DNA from: a virus
DNA: 35,767 nucleotides
Strand: one strand, 5' to 3'
Virus record (IMG/VR): IMGVR_UViG_3300025377_000002
Positions within the stretch are counted from its first letter, which is position 1. Every line of letters starts with the position of its first letter. The position numbers and the translations under genes are program-made. Under the pieces are notes generated by a model, which was not told where the DNA came from, made no database searches, and worked only from the letters and a program-made list of their open reading frames with translations. Below are positions 5,772-32,717 of this stretch, one piece after another.

Positions 5772-6931
5772 AATTCTGTTAAATCAAATTGAAGTTTAGT
5801 ATATAGTATCTTTTCTTTTATATCGTGAATCAGATATTTTTTATTATTTCGAGTGATTGTCTTTGAATAATTAACATCAAGATATTTAGGAAAGGTTAAT
5901 TTTCTAAAGGCTATCTCACAGTCAATTCTAAGGCTTTCTTTTTGTGTTTTGAGATAATACACCCCTTTGCGATAAAGATACGCCAGAGCATCGTTTACGT
6001 TATAAATCTGAGCACCTGCCCCATCATCTGAGTTAGCGGTTAAGGTTACGGGGTAATTAAAGAACCTTCGTTCTAATCCTGTATAATTTACGTCTTGAAT
6101 ATATATCTTACCGTTAATTTCTACGAGTGGAAACTCAGGGTCAACGAATGTATAATTAGTCCTCTCGAACACGGGCGCTGAGTTGCTTGAGCCTCCACCT
6201 TGCCCTGTATCAAGTATAGGGTATAAGAATTGTATTTGTCTCCCGTTGTAGAATGTTTGAAGGTTTGTCAGAACTGGGTTAGAGTTAAAGATGCTTCTTA
6301 CATTACTTGTTTCCAATCTTTCGGTTGCAAACCGTGTGTCTATTGCTCCGTAGCTTTCTATATTGTTATAATCGCCAATTAATATTCTATTAGAATACGA
6401 ACCGTCACCTCTAGCATATAATCCTGTATCGAAGTAACTCCACGCACCACTTGACTTACGTAGTTCGTCTATTATAGCAAGATTTTGGTTTACTCCTGTC
6501 GTCAAGCTAAGGGTTACATCATTACTTATTAAGATAAACTCAAAGCCTTGTATTCTGTTGGCTGTAACAATTCCACTTTGATTGACGAACTGTTGATTAA
6601 TAAGCGTTGGCTCAGCATATAATGATTTGTAAATAGATGAATAAAACCTGACTTCTATTTGCCCCTGTGAGTCTACTTTTTTAGATGATTTATCTTGAAC
6701 AAATAGTAGATCATGTCCGTCTTTTTTAATACGTATGCCATAATCACTATTTTTTATAAAATTGTAAGCATCAAATGGTAAATTAGTATTAAATTTACAA
6801 GTTAGCTCATTTGGCTGATTAGTATTGTATGTAAGCTGAGCTTGTGTTACACCCTTTGATTGAGTGTTTATGGTAAACAGTGAATTATATTGCTCAGTAT
6901 CATCAAAAGGATTAACAATTTGTAGTATCAT
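5768..6931 (-). CDS. tail/baseplate protein (by position); start trimmed from the ORF track
   Basis: I place the start at ATG 6931-6929. This gives the genome-typical TAATATG junction with the upstream stop at 6933-6935, instead of a 53-nt overlap. Confidence 0.55.
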   Translation of the reverse strand: MILQIVNPFDDTEQYNSLFTINTQSKGVTQAQLTYNTNQPNELTCKFNTNLPFDAYNFIKNSDYGIRIKKDGHDLLFVQDKSSKKVDSQGQIEVRFYSSIYKSLYAEPTLINQQFVNQSGIVTANRIQGFEFILISNDVTLSLTTGVNQNLAIIDELRKSSGAWSYFDTGLYARGDGSYSNRILIGDYNNIESYGAIDTRFATERLETSNVRSIFNSNPVLTNLQTFYNGRQIQFLYPILDTGQGGGSSNSAPVFERTNYTFVDPEFPLVEINGKIYIQDVNYTGLERRFFNYPVTLTANSDDGAGAQIYNVNDALAYLYRKGVYYLKTQKESLRIDCEIAFRKLTFPKYLDVNYSKTITRNNKKYLIHDIKEKILYTKLQFDLTEL

Positions 6932-6932
6932 A

Positions 6933-7805
6933 TTAAGTTGTTGCAAGCAATAAACTGCCGTTCCAATAAGTGAAGCGCCGTCCACTAAAAACAGTTACGG
7001 TAGTTGATGTTCCTGCAGTACCATACAACTCAACGAAGTCGTTGGCGTTTAATTGTATTATTGTTTCTGCTAATGCAAAACCTGGTACGCCTGCTAATGC
7101 ACTTGTAAGTCTGTATGCGTGCTGCCAAGGTGCGCCGTTCTTATGATATTCGAAAAAGAAGTCAAAAGGAGATCCTGATAAAGAAGACAAAAGTGCCATA
7201 CCACCAAATTGATAATAGCCTGTAACAGGCGCTACAAATCTTGACGAAGCGGCAGTATAGTTGCTAGACAAATCGAATGTTTCTGTTGTCATTCCTATTT
7301 TAGCAGTCGCACCACCCGTAAATGACTGACTTGCTGTTAAATACGCTTGAAACATTATACGATTATTAAGATAGCGACTCTCAACTCTCCATTGGGTACC
7401 ATTTGGTGAGTATGTTCTTGATTCGTTAGGTATTGATATAACATTAGTTGTGGTTGCGGGCGCTATTGCATAAGCAGACGTTTCAACCGTATCAGAACCT
7501 GTACTTGTAACAGTAACTGTATTAAATGTAGTATCAATCTTTTTAATAGTGATTGATTGAAGTTGACCTGTGGCAGCGGGTAAGTTAACGACCTTATTGT
7601 TCTGAGAAGCGTCAACGTAGATAACAACCTCAGTATTAGCGGTTATGTTGTATGGACTTGCTGAGGTAGTAACCCGAGTAAATCCGTCAATCGCATTAGT
7701 GAAGTTCTTAAGCGGATTAAGATTAGCATTCATGAAGGCAGGGGTTGCATTATCCCCGTTCACGACTGCGGCTGCATTGGTTATTATTGGTGTGGTAACT
7801 GACAT
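6933..7805 (-). CDS. tail fibre/receptor-binding protein with a C1q/TNF-like C-terminal domain
   Basis: 290 aa. SRFVAPVTGYYQFGG, IIQLNANDFVELY and RRFTYWNGSLL match the C1q globular-head strand pattern. Confidence 0.55.
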   Translation of the reverse strand: MSVTTPIITNAAAVVNGDNATPAFMNANLNPLKNFTNAIDGFTRVTTSASPYNITANTEVVIYVDASQNNKVVNLPAATGQLQSITIKKIDTTFNTVTVTSTGSDTVETSAYAIAPATTTNVISIPNESRTYSPNGTQWRVESRYLNNRIMFQAYLTASQSFTGGATAKIGMTTETFDLSSNYTAASSRFVAPVTGYYQFGGMALLSSLSGSPFDFFFEYHKNGAPWQHAYRLTSALAGVPGFALAETIIQLNANDFVELYGTAGTSTTVTVFSGRRFTYWNGSLLLATT

Positions 7806-18227: not shown

Positions 18228-18437
18228 ATGACTATGAAAAAAATTGATAAGTCTTGGCAAGATAGACGTTATATTAACGCTTTGAACGTAGATAAAGAGC
18301 AGGCTACTATATTAAAGAATAAAGCTAAACAATACGCTTTTACACGTGCTCATTTACTGCGTGTGATTATTCAAGCGTATTTGGATGGCAAGCTCGATAT
18401 TTCAGAATATCAGCCAGACTGGTCTAAAGAATATTAA
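18228..18437 (+). CDS. RHH-like small protein encoded antisense to the late operon
   Basis: 69 aa. RRYINALNV (strand), KEQATILKNKAKQYAF and TRAHLLRVIIQAYLDG (helices). Its 3' end overlaps the protease gene by 14 nt convergently. Confidence 0.5.
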   Translation: MTMKKIDKSWQDRRYINALNVDKEQATILKNKAKQYAFTRAHLLRVIIQAYLDGKLDISEYQPDWSKEY

Positions 18438-19686
18438 CTTTATATTTTGATTTAATATTTACACGATACGGCTGTAATACTGTATACTCTCTATTCTGCT
18501 CAGCACTAGAAAAGATAATTGACTCTATGTTGAAGCTTATATTCTTAGCTATTTCTTTAATGCTTTCACGGTAGCCTTCCGCATTACCCTTTTGCAAATA
18601 GGCCAGTGTTGTATGTGCTATATAATCAGGGTACTCTGACTCGTATGGTAGTGTCTTTAATAATTCATTTGCTTTGTTGAATCTTTCGTCTGCCATTTCG
18701 AGAACTAAAACGTCATAATCGTCTTTTTCAAATATAGTTACACCAATACACTTTGGGTTGATTTTAGTATTATAAGTCCCAACGAGAGTAAAAACATTAG
18801 TCCAGTCTTGTGATGCAAATAGTACGTTTTCTATTTGTTCTTTTGTCACACTAGGCAATAAGCCATATAAAAGCGTTGTGTGTGGGTTCTTTTCTATTCC
18901 ATCTTTTATTGGATCGTTTGGATCAACATACAAATCTTCTTTGCGAATAATCTTAGTCAGAGGGTTCAATATATCATCTTTGTATTTCGCCATCACACAA
19001 CCGTAGTTTTTGCTCTTTTTATTAATCAACTCAAACGGGATTTTGCTTGCCGTCTTCATATTAACAATCTCGTCTTCAAACTCTACATCAACATAGTAGT
19101 GATTATCATTATCAACATAGACCGTTTTAACGTTTCCGATTGTATCAAAGACTTTTACTCGTTCCCCTAGCTTGTACTGCTTAGCCAACTCTTCATCTGT
19201 AACAACGGTAAACTTAGCTTTAGGATTGGCTGGATCACCTGTCACTGTTAGCTCATTGATCTCTACCTCGGTGTCTATGCGTTGCTTAGTCTTTTGATTG
19301 GTCAACCAGTTCAATGTTTTCCAGTTGAGTGAAAAGCTTGTCTTCTTGTTTGCTAAAATATCTTGTATTAATTCTTGATCAGTAATATTAGCAACAACAT
19401 CAATTTTCATCTCTAAAGGTTTTGGTGAGTCAATAGAATAGTCTTCAGGTGCGTATTCCATGTTGAGTACATTACCAAGCTGTCTGTTACCATATTTACG
19501 CTCAAAACCATGCTCAGCCATGATCTTACCACCTTTATCAATAAACTTCTTATATGACTGTTTAAATGCGTTTGGCGAGATAGTGATTGATTCACCATGC
19601 TTATCAAGGTGATTAGTGGTTGCAGTGCCACGGATTACAAGCCCGCCTGCTGTTAATGATTTGGTGTTGATTATAAAGTCGATCAT
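18424..19686 (-). CDS. prohead protease (HK97/S78-type) fused to a C-terminal 2H phosphoesterase (LigT/2',5'-RNA-ligase-like) domain
   Basis: 420 aa. N-terminal part: GLVIRGTATTNHLDKHGESI...AEHG...SFSLNW...ELTVTGDPANPKAKF. C-terminal part: two HxTx motifs, NPHTTLLYGL and IAHTTLAYL, about 90 aa apart. Confidence 0.7.
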   Translation of the reverse strand: MIDFIINTKSLTAGGLVIRGTATTNHLDKHGESITISPNAFKQSYKKFIDKGGKIMAEHGFERKYGNRQLGNVLNMEYAPEDYSIDSPKPLEMKIDVVANITDQELIQDILANKKTSFSLNWKTLNWLTNQKTKQRIDTEVEINELTVTGDPANPKAKFTVVTDEELAKQYKLGERVKVFDTIGNVKTVYVDNDNHYYVDVEFEDEIVNMKTASKIPFELINKKSKNYGCVMAKYKDDILNPLTKIIRKEDLYVDPNDPIKDGIEKNPHTTLLYGLLPSVTKEQIENVLFASQDWTNVFTLVGTYNTKINPKCIGVTIFEKDDYDVLVLEMADERFNKANELLKTLPYESEYPDYIAHTTLAYLQKGNAEGYRESIKEIAKNISFNIESIIFSSAEQNREYTVLQPYRVNIKSKYKVNIL

Positions 19687-29809: not shown

Positions 29810-30280
29810 ATGTCTAAAAAATACGAACTAACTAACACAACTATACAGCACAACGGAGTAACACTCTATCAAATAAAAGCGTTAAAGAACTTTGGTAGTG
29901 TATCTAAAGGAGAACTCGGAGGATACATCGAAAAAGAAAAAAACTTATCACAAGAAGGCAACGCTTGGGTCTATGGCGATGCTCGTATCTATGGCGATGC
30001 TCAGGTCTATGGCGATGCTCAGGTCTATGGCGATGCTCAGGTCTATGGCGATGCTTGGGTCTATGGCGATGCTCGTATCTCTGGCGATGCTCGTATCTCT
30101 GACGATGCTCGTTTATGCGCTAAAAAAGAATACAAACAAGGCTGGTTTGTTGGCGGTGACGATCAGTATGTTCTTGGAGATTATGAAATAGTTGATATTG
30201 AAGAATCAAAAGAAGAAACTATAAGCATCGAAGGTAAAGAATATACATTATCAGAAATTAAAAAAGCACTTAGTAAATAA
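29810..30280 (+). CDS. hexapeptide-repeat (predicted beta-helix) protein
   Basis: 156 aa. Eight consecutive A-x-[VI]-[YS]-[GD]-D hexads: AWVYGD ARIYGD AQVYGD x3 AWVYGD ARISGD ARISDD. Confidence 0.7.
   Translation: MSKKYELTNTTIQHNGVTLYQIKALKNFGSVSKGELGGYIEKEKNLSQEGNAWVYGDARIYGDAQVYGDAQVYGDAQVYGDAWVYGDARISGDARISDDARLCAKKEYKQGWFVGGDDQYVLGDYEIVDIEESKEETISIEGKEYTLSEIKKALSK
29963..30106 (+). repeat. 8 x 18-bp tandem coding repeat (gct nnn ntc tnt gnc gat)
   Basis: Read directly. Three central units, gctcaggtctatggcgat, are identical. Confidence 0.9.
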
Positions 30281-31647: not shown

Positions 31648-32445
31648 ATGCAATCATACAATAATAATCCAAAATTCAAAAGACACGTTGTCCAGAACAT
31701 CGAAAAAAATCAAGGCTGCAATGTAGGCTCTGGTGAATTCGCTGTTTGCCAAATACTTGGTGAAAAATTCCAAGAGAAACTCGATGTTGCTGTTGCTATA
31801 TTGTATCTTGGTGATACAATATTTAAAAACCTACCCAAAAATAAAGCAGATCAATTTGACTTTTATAATTCAATTCCAGCTGGAAAAGATTTGTCACAGG
31901 TCGTAAAGGTCGTAATTGATATGAAGATTGCTGTCTTAACTGACCCAACATTTGGTTGCAGACAATATGCATTCGATGATGGGAAAGCGGCGATTGACTC
32001 GATTGTTGAGTTACTTAGTCGTTCGAAACGAGAAGAGATTGATGAGTCAGCATGGTCTTTAGCAGAGTCGGCAGCAGAGTCGGCAGCAGAGTCAGCAGAA
32101 GAGGTGGCACGGTCAGCATGGTCTTTAGCAGAGTCGGCATCAGCGTCAGGATGGTCAGCAGCAGCAGAGGCAGCAGAGGCAGCACAGTCAGCAGCTGAGT
32201 CAGGATGGCAAGCAGCAGCAAAGGCAGCAGAGTCTGCAGTATGGTCAGCAGCAGAGTCTGCGTGGCAAGCAGCATGGTCAGCAGAGTCTGCACGGCCAGC
32301 ATGGTCAGCAGTATGGTCAGCAGAGTCAGCAGAGTCTGCAGGGTCGGCAGCAGAGGCAGCAGCAGAGTCTGCGTGGCAAGCAGCAGCAGAGTCAGCATAC
32401 GAACACATAGCTGCAAAACTTATTAAGCTATTGAAGAATGCGTAA
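31648..32445 (+). CDS. protein with a Trp/Ala/Ser/Glu 4-residue-periodic repeat C-terminal half (unknown function)
   Basis: 265 aa. An N-terminal ~130 aa non-repetitive domain is followed by AWSLAESAAESAAESAEE...SGWQAAAKAAESAVWSAAESAWQAAWSAESARPAWSAVWSAESAESAG... Confidence 0.7.
   Translation: MQSYNNNPKFKRHVVQNIEKNQGCNVGSGEFAVCQILGEKFQEKLDVAVAILYLGDTIFKNLPKNKADQFDFYNSIPAGKDLSQVVKVVIDMKIAVLTDPTFGCRQYAFDDGKAAIDSIVELLSRSKREEIDESAWSLAESAAESAAESAEEVARSAWSLAESASASGWSAAAEAAEAAQSAAESGWQAAAKAAESAVWSAAESAWQAAWSAESARPAWSAVWSAESAESAGSAAEAAAESAWQAAAESAYEHIAAKLIKLLKNA
32044..32400. repeat. GC-rich degenerate tandem repeat (units gcagagtcNgca / tggtcagca)
   Basis: Read directly. There are no stops in several frames on either strand, which produces the shadow ORFs 31863-32408, 32015-32416 and 32205-32426. 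Confidence 0.85.
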
Positions 32446-32493
32446 GTGCCTAGGTTTCAGTCGTTCCTAACAAAAACGGCTTGTTGAAAGATT

Positions 32494-32684
32494 GAATCAA
32501 GCAGTAGCTAAAGCGGTCAATAGCTGAAAAAGTGCAGAAGACAGACGATTAGTTTTTGTACTCTAATAAAAGAATAAAGGGAAATAGACGTCGGGGGAGT
32601 GTGATGACTACCCAGCCTGACCCATCACTATAATACGTGGCTTAATCCTTTCTTACGCAGGTTCGAATCCTGTCTGCTTGATTC
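32494..32684 (+). ncRNA. tRNA-like RNA with canonical acceptor/D/T arms and a ~110-nt insert replacing or interrupting the anticodon arm
   Basis: Acceptor caagcag (32498-32504) pairs with ctgcttg (32674-32680), extendable to 11 bp (32494-32504 with 32674-32684). U8-A9 is 'ta'. D arm: gcta-aagcggtcaa-tagc (G10, A14, GG, A21). T arm: gcagg-ttcgaat-cctgt (32657-32673). Confidence 0.55.
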
Positions 32685-32717
32685 AGCCTTTGAGCTGAGA
32701 AATAAACTTAAAATATT

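Follow-up and report, generated by a model that had tools for sequence, protein, structure and literature searches.

What does a phage encode where its DNA spells out the acceptor, D and T arms of a transfer RNA (tRNA) around a long stretch that does not look like tRNA? The question is raised by positions 32498-32680 (+) of the IMG/VR virus record IMGVR_UViG_3300025377_000002, whose whole analysed stretch of 35,767 nucleotides (nt) is called the window below. An earlier reading of the sequence, referred to here as the original prediction, offered three possibilities: an intron- or insert-containing tRNA, a minimal molecule of the transfer-messenger RNA (tmRNA) type, and a tRNA mimic. Our answer, to which we assign a probability of roughly 0.55, is that the locus, which belongs to a rightward early operon and is read from the + strand, specifies a previously undescribed non-coding RNA of cloverleaf shape that derives from tRNA, and not a decoding tRNA, an intron-containing tRNA or a miniature tmRNA. 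No description of such RNAs was found in the literature.

A tRNA frame around a non-tRNA core

By sequence reading, the element is an intact tRNA frame that encloses 132 nt between its D and T arms. Its parts, together with the flanking stalk and with lengths of helices in base pairs (bp), are the following; L109 and L131 are two homologues described further below.

32477..32493, + strand: 5' strand of the stalk extension, made of CGGCUU (32477-82), the bulge GUUG (32483-86), AAAG (32487-90), A32491 (A/C mismatch) and UU (32492-93); from the fold with flanks
32494..32504, + strand: 5' strand of the conserved 11-bp terminal stem, of which 32498-32504 are acceptor positions 1-7; from sequence and covariation
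32505..32506, + strand: two-nt linker UA (U8, A9), kept as UA in L109 and replaced by CCA in L131
32507..32524, + strand: D arm with the 4-bp stem GCUA/UAGC and the loop AAGCGGUCAA (A14, G18G19, A21); from sequence, the stem covaries
32525..32530, + strand: U26 and the conserved unpaired junction GAAA(A), which is GAAA in the window and L109 and GAAG in L131; unpaired probability ~0.99
32531..32562, + strand: hairpin 1, which stands as the central arm where a tRNA has its anticodon arm; its 11 bp are interrupted by one bulge and its loop of 9 nt is AGACGAUUA; pair probabilities 0.63-1.0
32563..32569, + strand: linker CUAAUAA (the 'double stop'), unpaired in the minimum-free-energy fold
32570..32654, + strand: domain 2, an 85-nt branched arm at the variable-arm position, closed by AAGAA/UUCUU; probability of the closing helix ~0.5
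32657..32673, + strand: T arm GCAGG-UUCGAAU-CCUGU, set against the terminal stem; from sequence, the stem is kept in the homologues
32674..32684, + strand: 3' strand of the 11-bp terminal stem, of which 32674-32680 are acceptor positions 66-72 and 32681 is A73
32685..32697, + strand: 3' strand of the stalk extension, made of AG, the mismatched C32687, CUUU and GAGCUG; from the fold with flanks

The 7-bp acceptor joins caagcag (32498-32504) to ctgcttg (32674-32680) and is followed by UA at 32505-32506, the U8 and A9 of a tRNA (U8 being 32505). The D arm reads gcta-AAGCGGTCAA-tagc and carries A14, G18G19 and A21, and the T arm, gcagg-TTCGAAT-cctgt with a G49.U65 and a G53-C61 pair, lies directly against the 3' strand of the acceptor. 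In total, the window copy has the invariant tRNA nucleotides U8, A14, G18G19, A21, G53, T54-Ψ55-C56, A58 and C61. As had been noticed earlier, the acceptor helix is lengthened to 11 bp (32494-32504 with 32674-32684) and includes the discriminator, A73 (32681) being paired with U32497, and the G3:U70 pair of tmRNAs is lacking, pair 3-70 being A32500-U32678. There is no encoded CCA at the 3' end, which continues as A-UUC, and position 73 is paired inside the conserved helix.

A custom scanner was used to judge how often such a frame occurs. To count, a site had to show a 7-bp acceptor, U8, a D stem of 4 bp whose loop contains GG and, abutting the acceptor, a T arm that is closed by a G-C pair and has a TTCRA loop. 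The scanner gave a single match in the whole window on both strands and none in 200 dinucleotide-preserving shuffles, and the T arm with acceptor alone occurred 0.015 times per dinucleotide shuffle. The tRNA frame is real and not due to chance, and the earlier description of canonical acceptor, D and T arms around a large non-tRNA core is confirmed. Standard annotation misses it: default ARAGORN reported 0 tRNA or tmRNA genes in the whole window, Rfam was empty at gathering thresholds and gave mere noise at E <= 10, and its tRNA covariance model was silent; neither of the two places an ordinary intron-less tRNA in the span. The intron-tolerant tRNA finder mislabels the element as tRNA-Leu(UAA) with an intron, as discussed below.

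Conservation of the frame by compensatory changes

Two homologues of the element were found. The contig with the closest usable relative of the upstream gene (54% identity), L109, has a 217-nt gap at the same position, and within this gap lies a 112-nt cloverleaf (2675-2786) composed, in order, of GAAAGUAGGAG, UA, GCGG-ACAGUGAA-CCGC, A-GAAA, a 15-bp central hairpin, a 13-nt linker, GCAAG-UCAAAC-CUUGC and CUCCUACUUUC. Its flanks are similar to those in the window, with GTTGAAAG upstream and AGCCUUYRAGCUG downstream. The second homologue, L131 3783-3919, came from a structure scan of ~55 loci encoding relatives of the upstream protein. It consists of a 10-bp terminal stem, a D hairpin that has GG in its loop, GAAG, a first hairpin of 23 nt whose tetraloop is GAAA, another, long hairpin and a T stem identical to that of L109, and it is placed after Sak4-like and DUF669-like recombination genes. 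Rfam holds no family for either element. In the window, L109 and L131 alike, a terminal stem of at least 10 bp is followed, after a linker of 2-3 nt, by a D hairpin of 4 bp, then by GAAR, which is unpaired, and by a central hairpin; a T hairpin of 5 bp lies directly against the terminal stem.

The frames of the three homologues were aligned with the unpaired loops trimmed to equal length. Paired cells made up 98.3% of the alignment and half of the pairs (10/20) were changed on both sides, a result that none of 500 shuffles reached; slid registers gave 32-47% pairing and at most one covarying pair. The double changes are found in 7 of the 11 pairs of the terminal stem, including its four-pair extension, in 2 of 4 in the D stem and in 1 of 5 in the T stem. 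No pair of the terminal stem is broken save the outermost one in L131. The D stem occurs as GCUA/UAGC, GCGG/CCGC and GCCU/AGGU, and the T stem, which is GCAAG/CUUGC in L109 and L131, shows one double change and one replacement of G.U by G-C. L109, which was located by synteny alone, keeps 20/20 pairs of the window with 7 double changes. Thus the check on homologous loci that had been suggested for the proposed helices comes out in favour of the terminal, D and T stems.

The loops of the frame are less uniform. The D-loop tRNA consensus is full in the window and partial in L131 (GG), the T loop is canonical in the window only, and the equivalent of position 73 is A, U and U among the homologues and is base-paired. 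Because the D and T loops of the window copy, and of this copy alone, keep the full tRNA consensus, its body should fold into a tRNA-like L shape.

Further members were found neither in L108, L110-L113 and L170-L173 nor in the rest of the ~55 upstream-gene loci. L135 and other matches of a relaxed scan proved to be coding sequence or noise, and none of the T-stem hairpins GCAAG..CTTGC in other loci was accompanied by a matching terminal stem.

Two additional arms and no anticodon arm

The core contains, as sequence, everything that the original prediction pointed out in it: gaaaa and ctttc, cttaatc, a 10-codon open stretch ending in taa taa, and two interleaved 6-bp complementarities. Their pairing was assessed in the thermodynamic ensemble of the window element with the frame enforced. 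GAAA/UUUC has a pairing probability of ~0 and GAAA is unpaired at ~0.99; in L109 and L131 GAAR is likewise kept but partnerless, and the idea of an insert that replaces the anticodon arm and is closed by gaaaa/ctttc is not supported. GUCGGG/CCUGAC pairs with a probability of ~0.95, as against <0.01 for the interleaved helix GUGAUG/CAUCAC, which upholds the argument, previously drawn from the 1-nt linker, against an H-type pseudoknot. The stretch resembling an open reading frame (ORF) lies inside hairpin 1 with a pairing probability of ~1, and the only small ORF within the element has 25 amino acids (aa) and a TTG start.

A 5-bp/7-nt anticodon arm with U33 and R37 is found nowhere in the 132-nt core. 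The sole candidate, gaaaa/ctttc with the loop cuUAAuc, has a mismatch and U37, its pairing probability is ~0 and it is not conserved; a stem and loop of this grade arise at the same junctions in 5.5% of shuffled cores. Hairpin 1 is without a U33/R37 anticodon loop and holds the ORF-like stretch. The loops of the central hairpin are AGACGAUUA in the window, UGUGU in L109 and GAAA in L131, none of them an anticodon loop. What the homologues do conserve is the GAAR junction and a hairpin where the anticodon arm would be; the gaaaa/ctttc helix, the UAA loop, the ORF-like stretch and the interleaved helices are absent from both, and the UAA anticodon loop considered earlier is not supported. As far as its sequence tells, the RNA cannot decode codons.

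Within domain 2 lie the GC-rich hairpin GUCGGGGGAGU...ACUACCC...CCUGAC (32590-32621) and, further downstream, the cuUAAuc segment (32641-32647). Since L109 has just a 13-nt linker at this position and L131 a single long hairpin, domain 2 is a lineage-specific expansion. The conserved but partnerless GAAR, taken together with the ensemble fold, gives a layout resembling that of a class II tRNA, in which hairpin 1 stands at the anticodon-arm position and domain 2 at the variable-arm position.

The terminal stalk and the coding strand

With its flanks, the terminal helix of the window reaches ~23 bp (32477-32504 with 32674-32697), in the order of 13 bp, the A32491/C32687 mismatch, 4 bp, the GUUG bulge and 6 bp. 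Pair probabilities are 0.85-1.0 in the proximal extension and ~0.26 for an alternative distal register, and a local hairpin CAGC/GCUG in the 32685-32697 region has a probability of ~0, pairing with 32477-32493 being favoured. The conserved GTTGAAAG motif at 32483-90 is complementary to AGCCUUUGAGCUG downstream and is present upstream of the element in all three homologues. The stalk of L109 measures ~24 bp and has the same design including the A/C mismatch, and the downstream sequence AGCCUUYRAGCUG is conserved there.

Fold energies of the + and - strands are -62.1 and -52.8 kcal/mol in the window, -57.7 and -53.5 in L109 and -55.0 and -43.2 in L131. Thus the + strand is 4-12 kcal/mol more stable, and its folds contain 11, 4 and 9 G.U pairs, respectively. 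In these models, the advantage of the + strand and the G.U pairs point to an RNA in the sense of the operon rather than to a DNA structure.

Alternative explanations

The main rival is a purely cis-acting element of mRNA processing or stability. The stalk would then be an RNase III site as in T7 early mRNA, its cleavage would split the operon transcript and leave protective stems on both products, and the cloverleaf would have no function in trans. Such a role fits with the ~23-24-bp stalk with its internal mismatch in two homologues, with a location between cistrons on the coding strand lacking a promoter or terminator of its own, and with the tRNA loop motifs being dispensable in L109 and L131. 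However, a simple hairpin would suffice for this purpose, yet compensatory change has preserved the D, T and central helices as well; no nucleotide of the tRNA tertiary interactions is missing from the window copy, and the downstream genes are not the same in the three phages. We regard this explanation as unlikely, although it is the one that survives best.

Several observations also weigh against the tRNA-derived RNA proposed here. The family has three members only, and L131 was found by a scanner that requires stems, its pairing being partly ascertained thereby. L109 and L131 are without the TΨC and G18G19 loop consensus; a role shared by the family cannot need a canonical tRNA elbow, and the window copy may differ functionally. 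The fold of the whole element is no more than modestly better than that of shuffles (z = -1.9), and domain 2 is without comparative support. Moreover, the same phage recurs in several metagenomes (L041-L053) with the element 100% identical in all, but the variants are near-identical over the entire 6 kb compared (29.5-35.7 kb), and therefore this identity is uninformative.

The reading as an intron-containing tRNA-Leu(UAA) assumes that 32531-32640 (110 nt) is removed to give a 76-nt tRNA reading UUA. It owes its appeal to the intron mode of ARAGORN (-i), which places a tRNA-Leu(taa) at 32497-32682 and, at its 31/32 junction, an intron of 110 nt (32531-32640), to UUA being the commonest Leu codon of the phage (27 per 1000) and to A73, which we take to fit Leu identity as for the leucyl-tRNA synthetase of E. 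coli (LeuRS). The call is a permissive artefact. In six members of one homologous family, the same mode returned Ala, Asn, Glu, Trp or nothing, so that its anticodons are inconsistent; a genuine suppressor tRNA whose variable arm is long is parsed wrongly, and nothing is called in L109 or L131, which lack both the 3' strand of the stem and the loop. The presumed anticodon stem has an A.C mismatch and a helix probability of ~0, an equivalent arm appears in the 5.5% of shuffled cores mentioned above, and position 37 is a pyrimidine, U37. The 31/32 junction fits no known splicing system, the 5' exon would end in A and not in U, and the tRNA body is of class I, whereas bacterial tRNA-Leu is of class II. 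Even the smallest group I introns are about twice as long as the 110-nt insert, in agreement with the earlier remark that it is too short for one, and no Rfam intron model, group I (Intron_gpI) or group II, was matched even at E <= 10. On inspection, group I, group II and bulge-helix-bulge intron readings were all rejected on size, junction nucleotides and bacterial host markers. An intron-containing tRNA, as proposed originally, is thus very improbable.

Equally little credit is due to an element acting at the level of DNA (a replication origin, a recombination site or a cruciform), the hairpins of which would form in DNA. The early recombination/replication module in which it lies in all three phages and the long inverted repeats are compatible with this, but each G.U pair of the + strand becomes an A.C mismatch on the other strand, with the difference in stability given above, and the exact tRNA loop consensus of the window copy would be meaningless in DNA. 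In addition, neither iterons nor an AT-rich unwinding element were noticed on reading the intergenic sequence, in which no repeat search was made.

A decaying or disrupted tRNA pseudogene without function would account for the missing anticodon arm and for the loss of tRNA loop motifs in L109 and L131. It is hard to believe in, because compensatory substitutions among divergent homologues have maintained all 20 pairs of the frame, which needs selection, a compact phage genome retains the element at a conserved position, and every invariant tRNA nucleotide is intact in the window copy.

Least credible of all is the minimal tmRNA-like molecule of the original prediction, with charged tRNA-like ends and an internal GCA-GAA-...-UAA-UAA frame as tag template, since against its topology of tRNA ends around an internal domain and a frame starting with GCA after an A-rich tract and ending in a double stop stand A3-U70 rather than G3.U70, a complete D stem with just 8 nt between the D arm and the 'resume' codon, a fold without pseudoknots, a frame that is buried in a hairpin (probability ~1), is not conserved and is absent from L131, the base-paired A, U and U at position 73, and the tmRNA mode of ARAGORN (-m), negative at normal and relaxed thresholds.

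Comparison with known RNAs

With canonical tRNA (RF00005), the element has in common the 7-bp acceptor, U8, the 4-bp D stem with A14/G18G19/A21, the 5-bp T stem, the UUCGAAU loop and G53-C61. It differs in having no 5-bp/7-nt anticodon arm, in the 132 nt with two extra arms between the D and T arms, and in the pairing of position 73 and the 5' leader within a conserved helix of 11 bp (~23 bp with flanks). The window element is not a tRNA, as both the anticodon arm and detection by standard tools are wanting. The tmRNAs (RF00023) likewise have tRNA-like termini around a large internal domain, and phages do encode them; ARAGORN found three in other loci. These measure 308-377 nt against ~185 nt for the window element, whose D stem is full and whose pair 3-70 is A-U; it lacks a pseudoknot ring as well as a conserved tag frame. 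A group I intron interrupts tRNA-Leu(UAA) of cyanobacteria and plastids, and ARAGORN -i parses the window locus as this tRNA with an intervening sequence; the known introns are inserted between U34 and A35, have at least 200 nt and possess a P1-P9 core, in contrast to the 31/32 junction and 110 nt of the window.

YrlA (RF02553; PMC4201824), which also occurs in phages, is non-coding and imitates tRNA in its D and T arms without decoding, but it is circularly permuted: both its ends lie in a Ro-binding helix that replaces the anticodon stem, and within this stem the T arm, the acceptor as a closed hairpin, and the D arm follow in that order (PMC4201824). There was no match to RF02553 in the window, the topology of the element is unpermuted and no Ro/TROVE protein was seen. 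Since the defining features of each were tested and not found, the element is neither a tmRNA nor YrlA nor a group I-intron tRNA. We also considered phi29 pRNA, P1 C4 RNA and put-type antitermination RNA, and did not assign the element to any of them: it has no Rfam match, and the genome has a terminase.

The stable RNA C of T4 (rnaC, species 1 RNA) is, at 139 nt, larger than a tRNA and has no known function; a canonical T arm lies beside its terminal stem, and it is a precedent for a stable tRNA-like phage RNA of this kind. Unlike the window element, it is without a D arm, has a weak terminal stem and is located in a tRNA cluster; no sequence similarity was seen. In our folds, rnaC (L102 1409-1547, -) scored z = -4.6 against shuffles, with the T arm CCGGG-UUCGAAU-CCCGG, and T4 rnaD showed no significant fold (z = -0.8).

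Two further systems serve as functional analogies. In the engineered 'tRNA scaffold' of Ponchon and Dardel, which the window element resembles in design, a tRNA body that processing enzymes recognise reportedly serves as a stable chassis for foreign structured RNA. Its cargo replaces the anticodon loop, whereas that of the window occupies the positions of the anticodon arm and the variable arm. In the RNase III stalks of rRNA and T7 early mRNA, flanking sequences pair into a helix of ~20 bp, by which an RNA is cut out of a longer transcript. Any likeness of the window element to these would be a functional analogy.

Genomic context and searches

The window is an essentially complete phage genome of ~35.7 kb with 37.5% GC and no other tRNA. 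Its proteins include a portal protein, an M23 peptidase, a D12 methylase, Rad52, the single-stranded DNA-binding protein SSB and an Ant-domain protein. Two + strand genes of the early recombination/replication operon are separated by 272 nt, most of which the element takes up; it shares the strand of these genes, and no promoter or terminator specific to it was predicted. In all three phages it lies within the early recombination/replication module, and the genes downstream differ among them. Integrase, reverse transcriptase and RNA ligase domains were absent in Pfam scans of the 20 larger ORFs, which did not cover every small ORF.

The upstream gene (31648-32445, +) encodes a protein with a Cys/His-containing N-terminal domain (KGCxIGC...H...DTIFEGLP) and C-terminal repeats of the WSAAESA / AADAAAY type (alignment A1). 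Its family is large, with >1,200 relatives of the L131 copy at E <= 1e-10. The protein has an all-helical AlphaFold model with a mean confidence score (pLDDT) of 70, belongs to a PHROG of unknown function, and matches no Pfam family and no PDB entry with E < 1.

Sequence searches for the element gave little. BLAST of the locus, the insert and 8.8 kb of surrounding DNA against 50,697 deposited phages yielded nothing relevant, and there were 0 matches in IMG/VR to the 5' half as a DNA pattern and 0 to a degenerate D arm-gap-T loop pattern. An insert 21-mer had 0 matches in a metagenome collection, which evidently does not index the source contigs. The one match of an insert 18-mer, L107, was a chance match in a coding region; the homologue P0002 of the downstream gene has no element upstream, and related loci found through SSB were all <=40% identical and had none either. 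The 3' half had 0 matches among GTDB bacterial species representatives. This, together with the lack of an integrase among the 20 larger ORFs, rules out a remnant of a phage attachment site (attP) or a host-tRNA origin, as anticipated by the original prediction, which had held a tRNA-derived attP to be unlikely.

Elsewhere in the window, an ORF at 29810-30280 (+) has tandem 'VYGDAQ' heptad-like repeats, the copy number of which varies among the metagenomic variants (144, 150, 156 and 174 aa). These repeats make up nearly all the variation in the 6-kb stretch compared, which has three other variable columns. A 420-aa ORF beside the portal gene (18424-19686, -) has a sub-threshold match to the anti-CBASS protein Acb1 (PF23474, E = 6e-5, 23 bits, cut-off 27).

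A second family and other oversized tRNA-like genes

A search with a 21-mer from the T arm and acceptor returned 40 phage loci, and many of the sites are oversized tRNA-like genes that ARAGORN misses. One of them, in L019, led to family G, which comprises six distinct RNAs of ~185-198 nt in Streptomyces Gilsonvirus phages and related actinophage contigs:

L019: 481-677
L100 (Gilson, NC_048742, ~81,041-81,231 in that record): ~1442-1632
L101 (Moab): ~1441-1630
L103: ~6050-6235
L104 and L106: minus strand

The members have an intact tRNA frame with A73, in which position 26 is followed at once by a hairpin of 4 bp that covaries and has the conserved loop AAAACGG. A giant arm at the variable position consists of a covarying stem and an invariant three-way-junction core, GCGGAUGCACCGGGAYCG ... 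GGUUGGGGAACCUYAACCCCCGRCAGGGAAGCGCG. Of the predicted pairs, 21/53 are changed on both sides. Rfam has no match, and the RNAs are unannotated except in Moab, where the region is annotated as a hypothetical protein (gene 140). Family G resembles the window element in the tRNA frame with A73, the non-anticodon hairpin after position 26 and the giant structured arm at the variable position, but it shows no sequence similarity to it, has a 7-bp acceptor without a conserved stalk and is located in tRNA clusters of high-GC phages of ~60-130 kb. It is an independent family of the same design, and arm-bearing tRNA scaffolds may recur in phages.

Other tRNA-like genes were observed as well. Oversized ones (88-136 nt), uncalled by ARAGORN, are present in the IMG/VR phages L012 (~2380-2640, two tandem copies), L021/L027, L030, L014, L028, L040 and L001/L008/L026/L039. 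These genes have the T arm and acceptor GCAGGUUCGAAUCCUGUCUGC in common, and several have a D arm of the tRNA-Leu type, GCGGAAUUGGUAGACGC; no anticodon arm is recognisable in any. L158 5436-5577 is a 142-nt tRNA-like element with a 9-bp terminal stem, the D loop AAACGGUGAC, the T loop UUCAAUU and an 87-nt core. It sits at the end of a contig, immediately behind a tRNA-like 3' end, and a relative of the repeat protein is encoded on this contig too; the GAAR and GTTGAAAG marks of the window family are missing. In L009 (794-922), a 129-nt tRNA has a normal anticodon arm, GUUCGG-AUUUAGC-CCGAAC, with the anticodon UUA, as in ochre suppressors, and its variable arm measures ~43 nt; it escapes default ARAGORN, and the intron mode mis-calls it as tRNA-Leu(gag) with an intron. 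In the tRNA-rich phages L011 (~6870-6946), L018, L029 and L037, uncalled tRNA-like genes of ~77-78 nt have an acceptor and a T arm as well as a hairpin of the anticodon type (loop CUACGAA, anticodon ACG), and apparently no D arm. Finally, L010 (6792-6867), L017 and L036 contain a tRNA called by ARAGORN with a 4-base anticodon (aacg, 8-nt loop) and a 10-11-bp complementarity, GGUGAAAGCCU...AGGCUUUUCAC, beyond the acceptor, which recalls the stalk of the window.

Possible function and significance

We propose that the long stalk and the tRNA-like body of the window element let host RNA-processing enzymes excise the RNA from a polycistronic transcript. If the stalk works like those that RNase III processes elsewhere, this enzyme would cut there, and RNase P, 3' trimming and CCA-adding enzymes would act on the tRNA-like end. 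The product would be a stable RNA of ~185 nt, and the upstream and downstream messages would be separated at the same time. The tRNA body might then serve as a stabilising, enzyme-recognised chassis that displays two non-tRNA arms, candidate targets of which are a tRNA-binding host factor or a defence nuclease. The RNA may also be the tRNA mimic or decoy suggested by the original prediction.

The tRNA-like non-coding RNAs of phages are few and mostly of no known function: T4 RNAs C and D, YrlA and tmRNA. The present locus is a clean case, in which a complete tRNA body has lost decoding and gained two arms and a putative processing stalk, its helices being kept by compensatory evolution. More tentatively, phages may use the tRNA body as a natural chassis for structured RNA modules, and a widespread, unannotated class of 'tRNA-scaffold' non-coding RNAs might exist, with the window family and family G as two examples and the oversized tRNA-like genes in L012, L021, L030 and L158 as further possible members. 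In such a class, the frame would recruit host tRNA and rRNA processing enzymes, and the cargo arms would carry the function, for instance as aptamer-like decoys for host tRNA-binding defence nucleases. Two unrelated families of the same design suggest that arm-bearing tRNA scaffolds recur in phages, which is experimentally testable, and family G, residing in cultured Streptomyces phages, is tractable in the laboratory.

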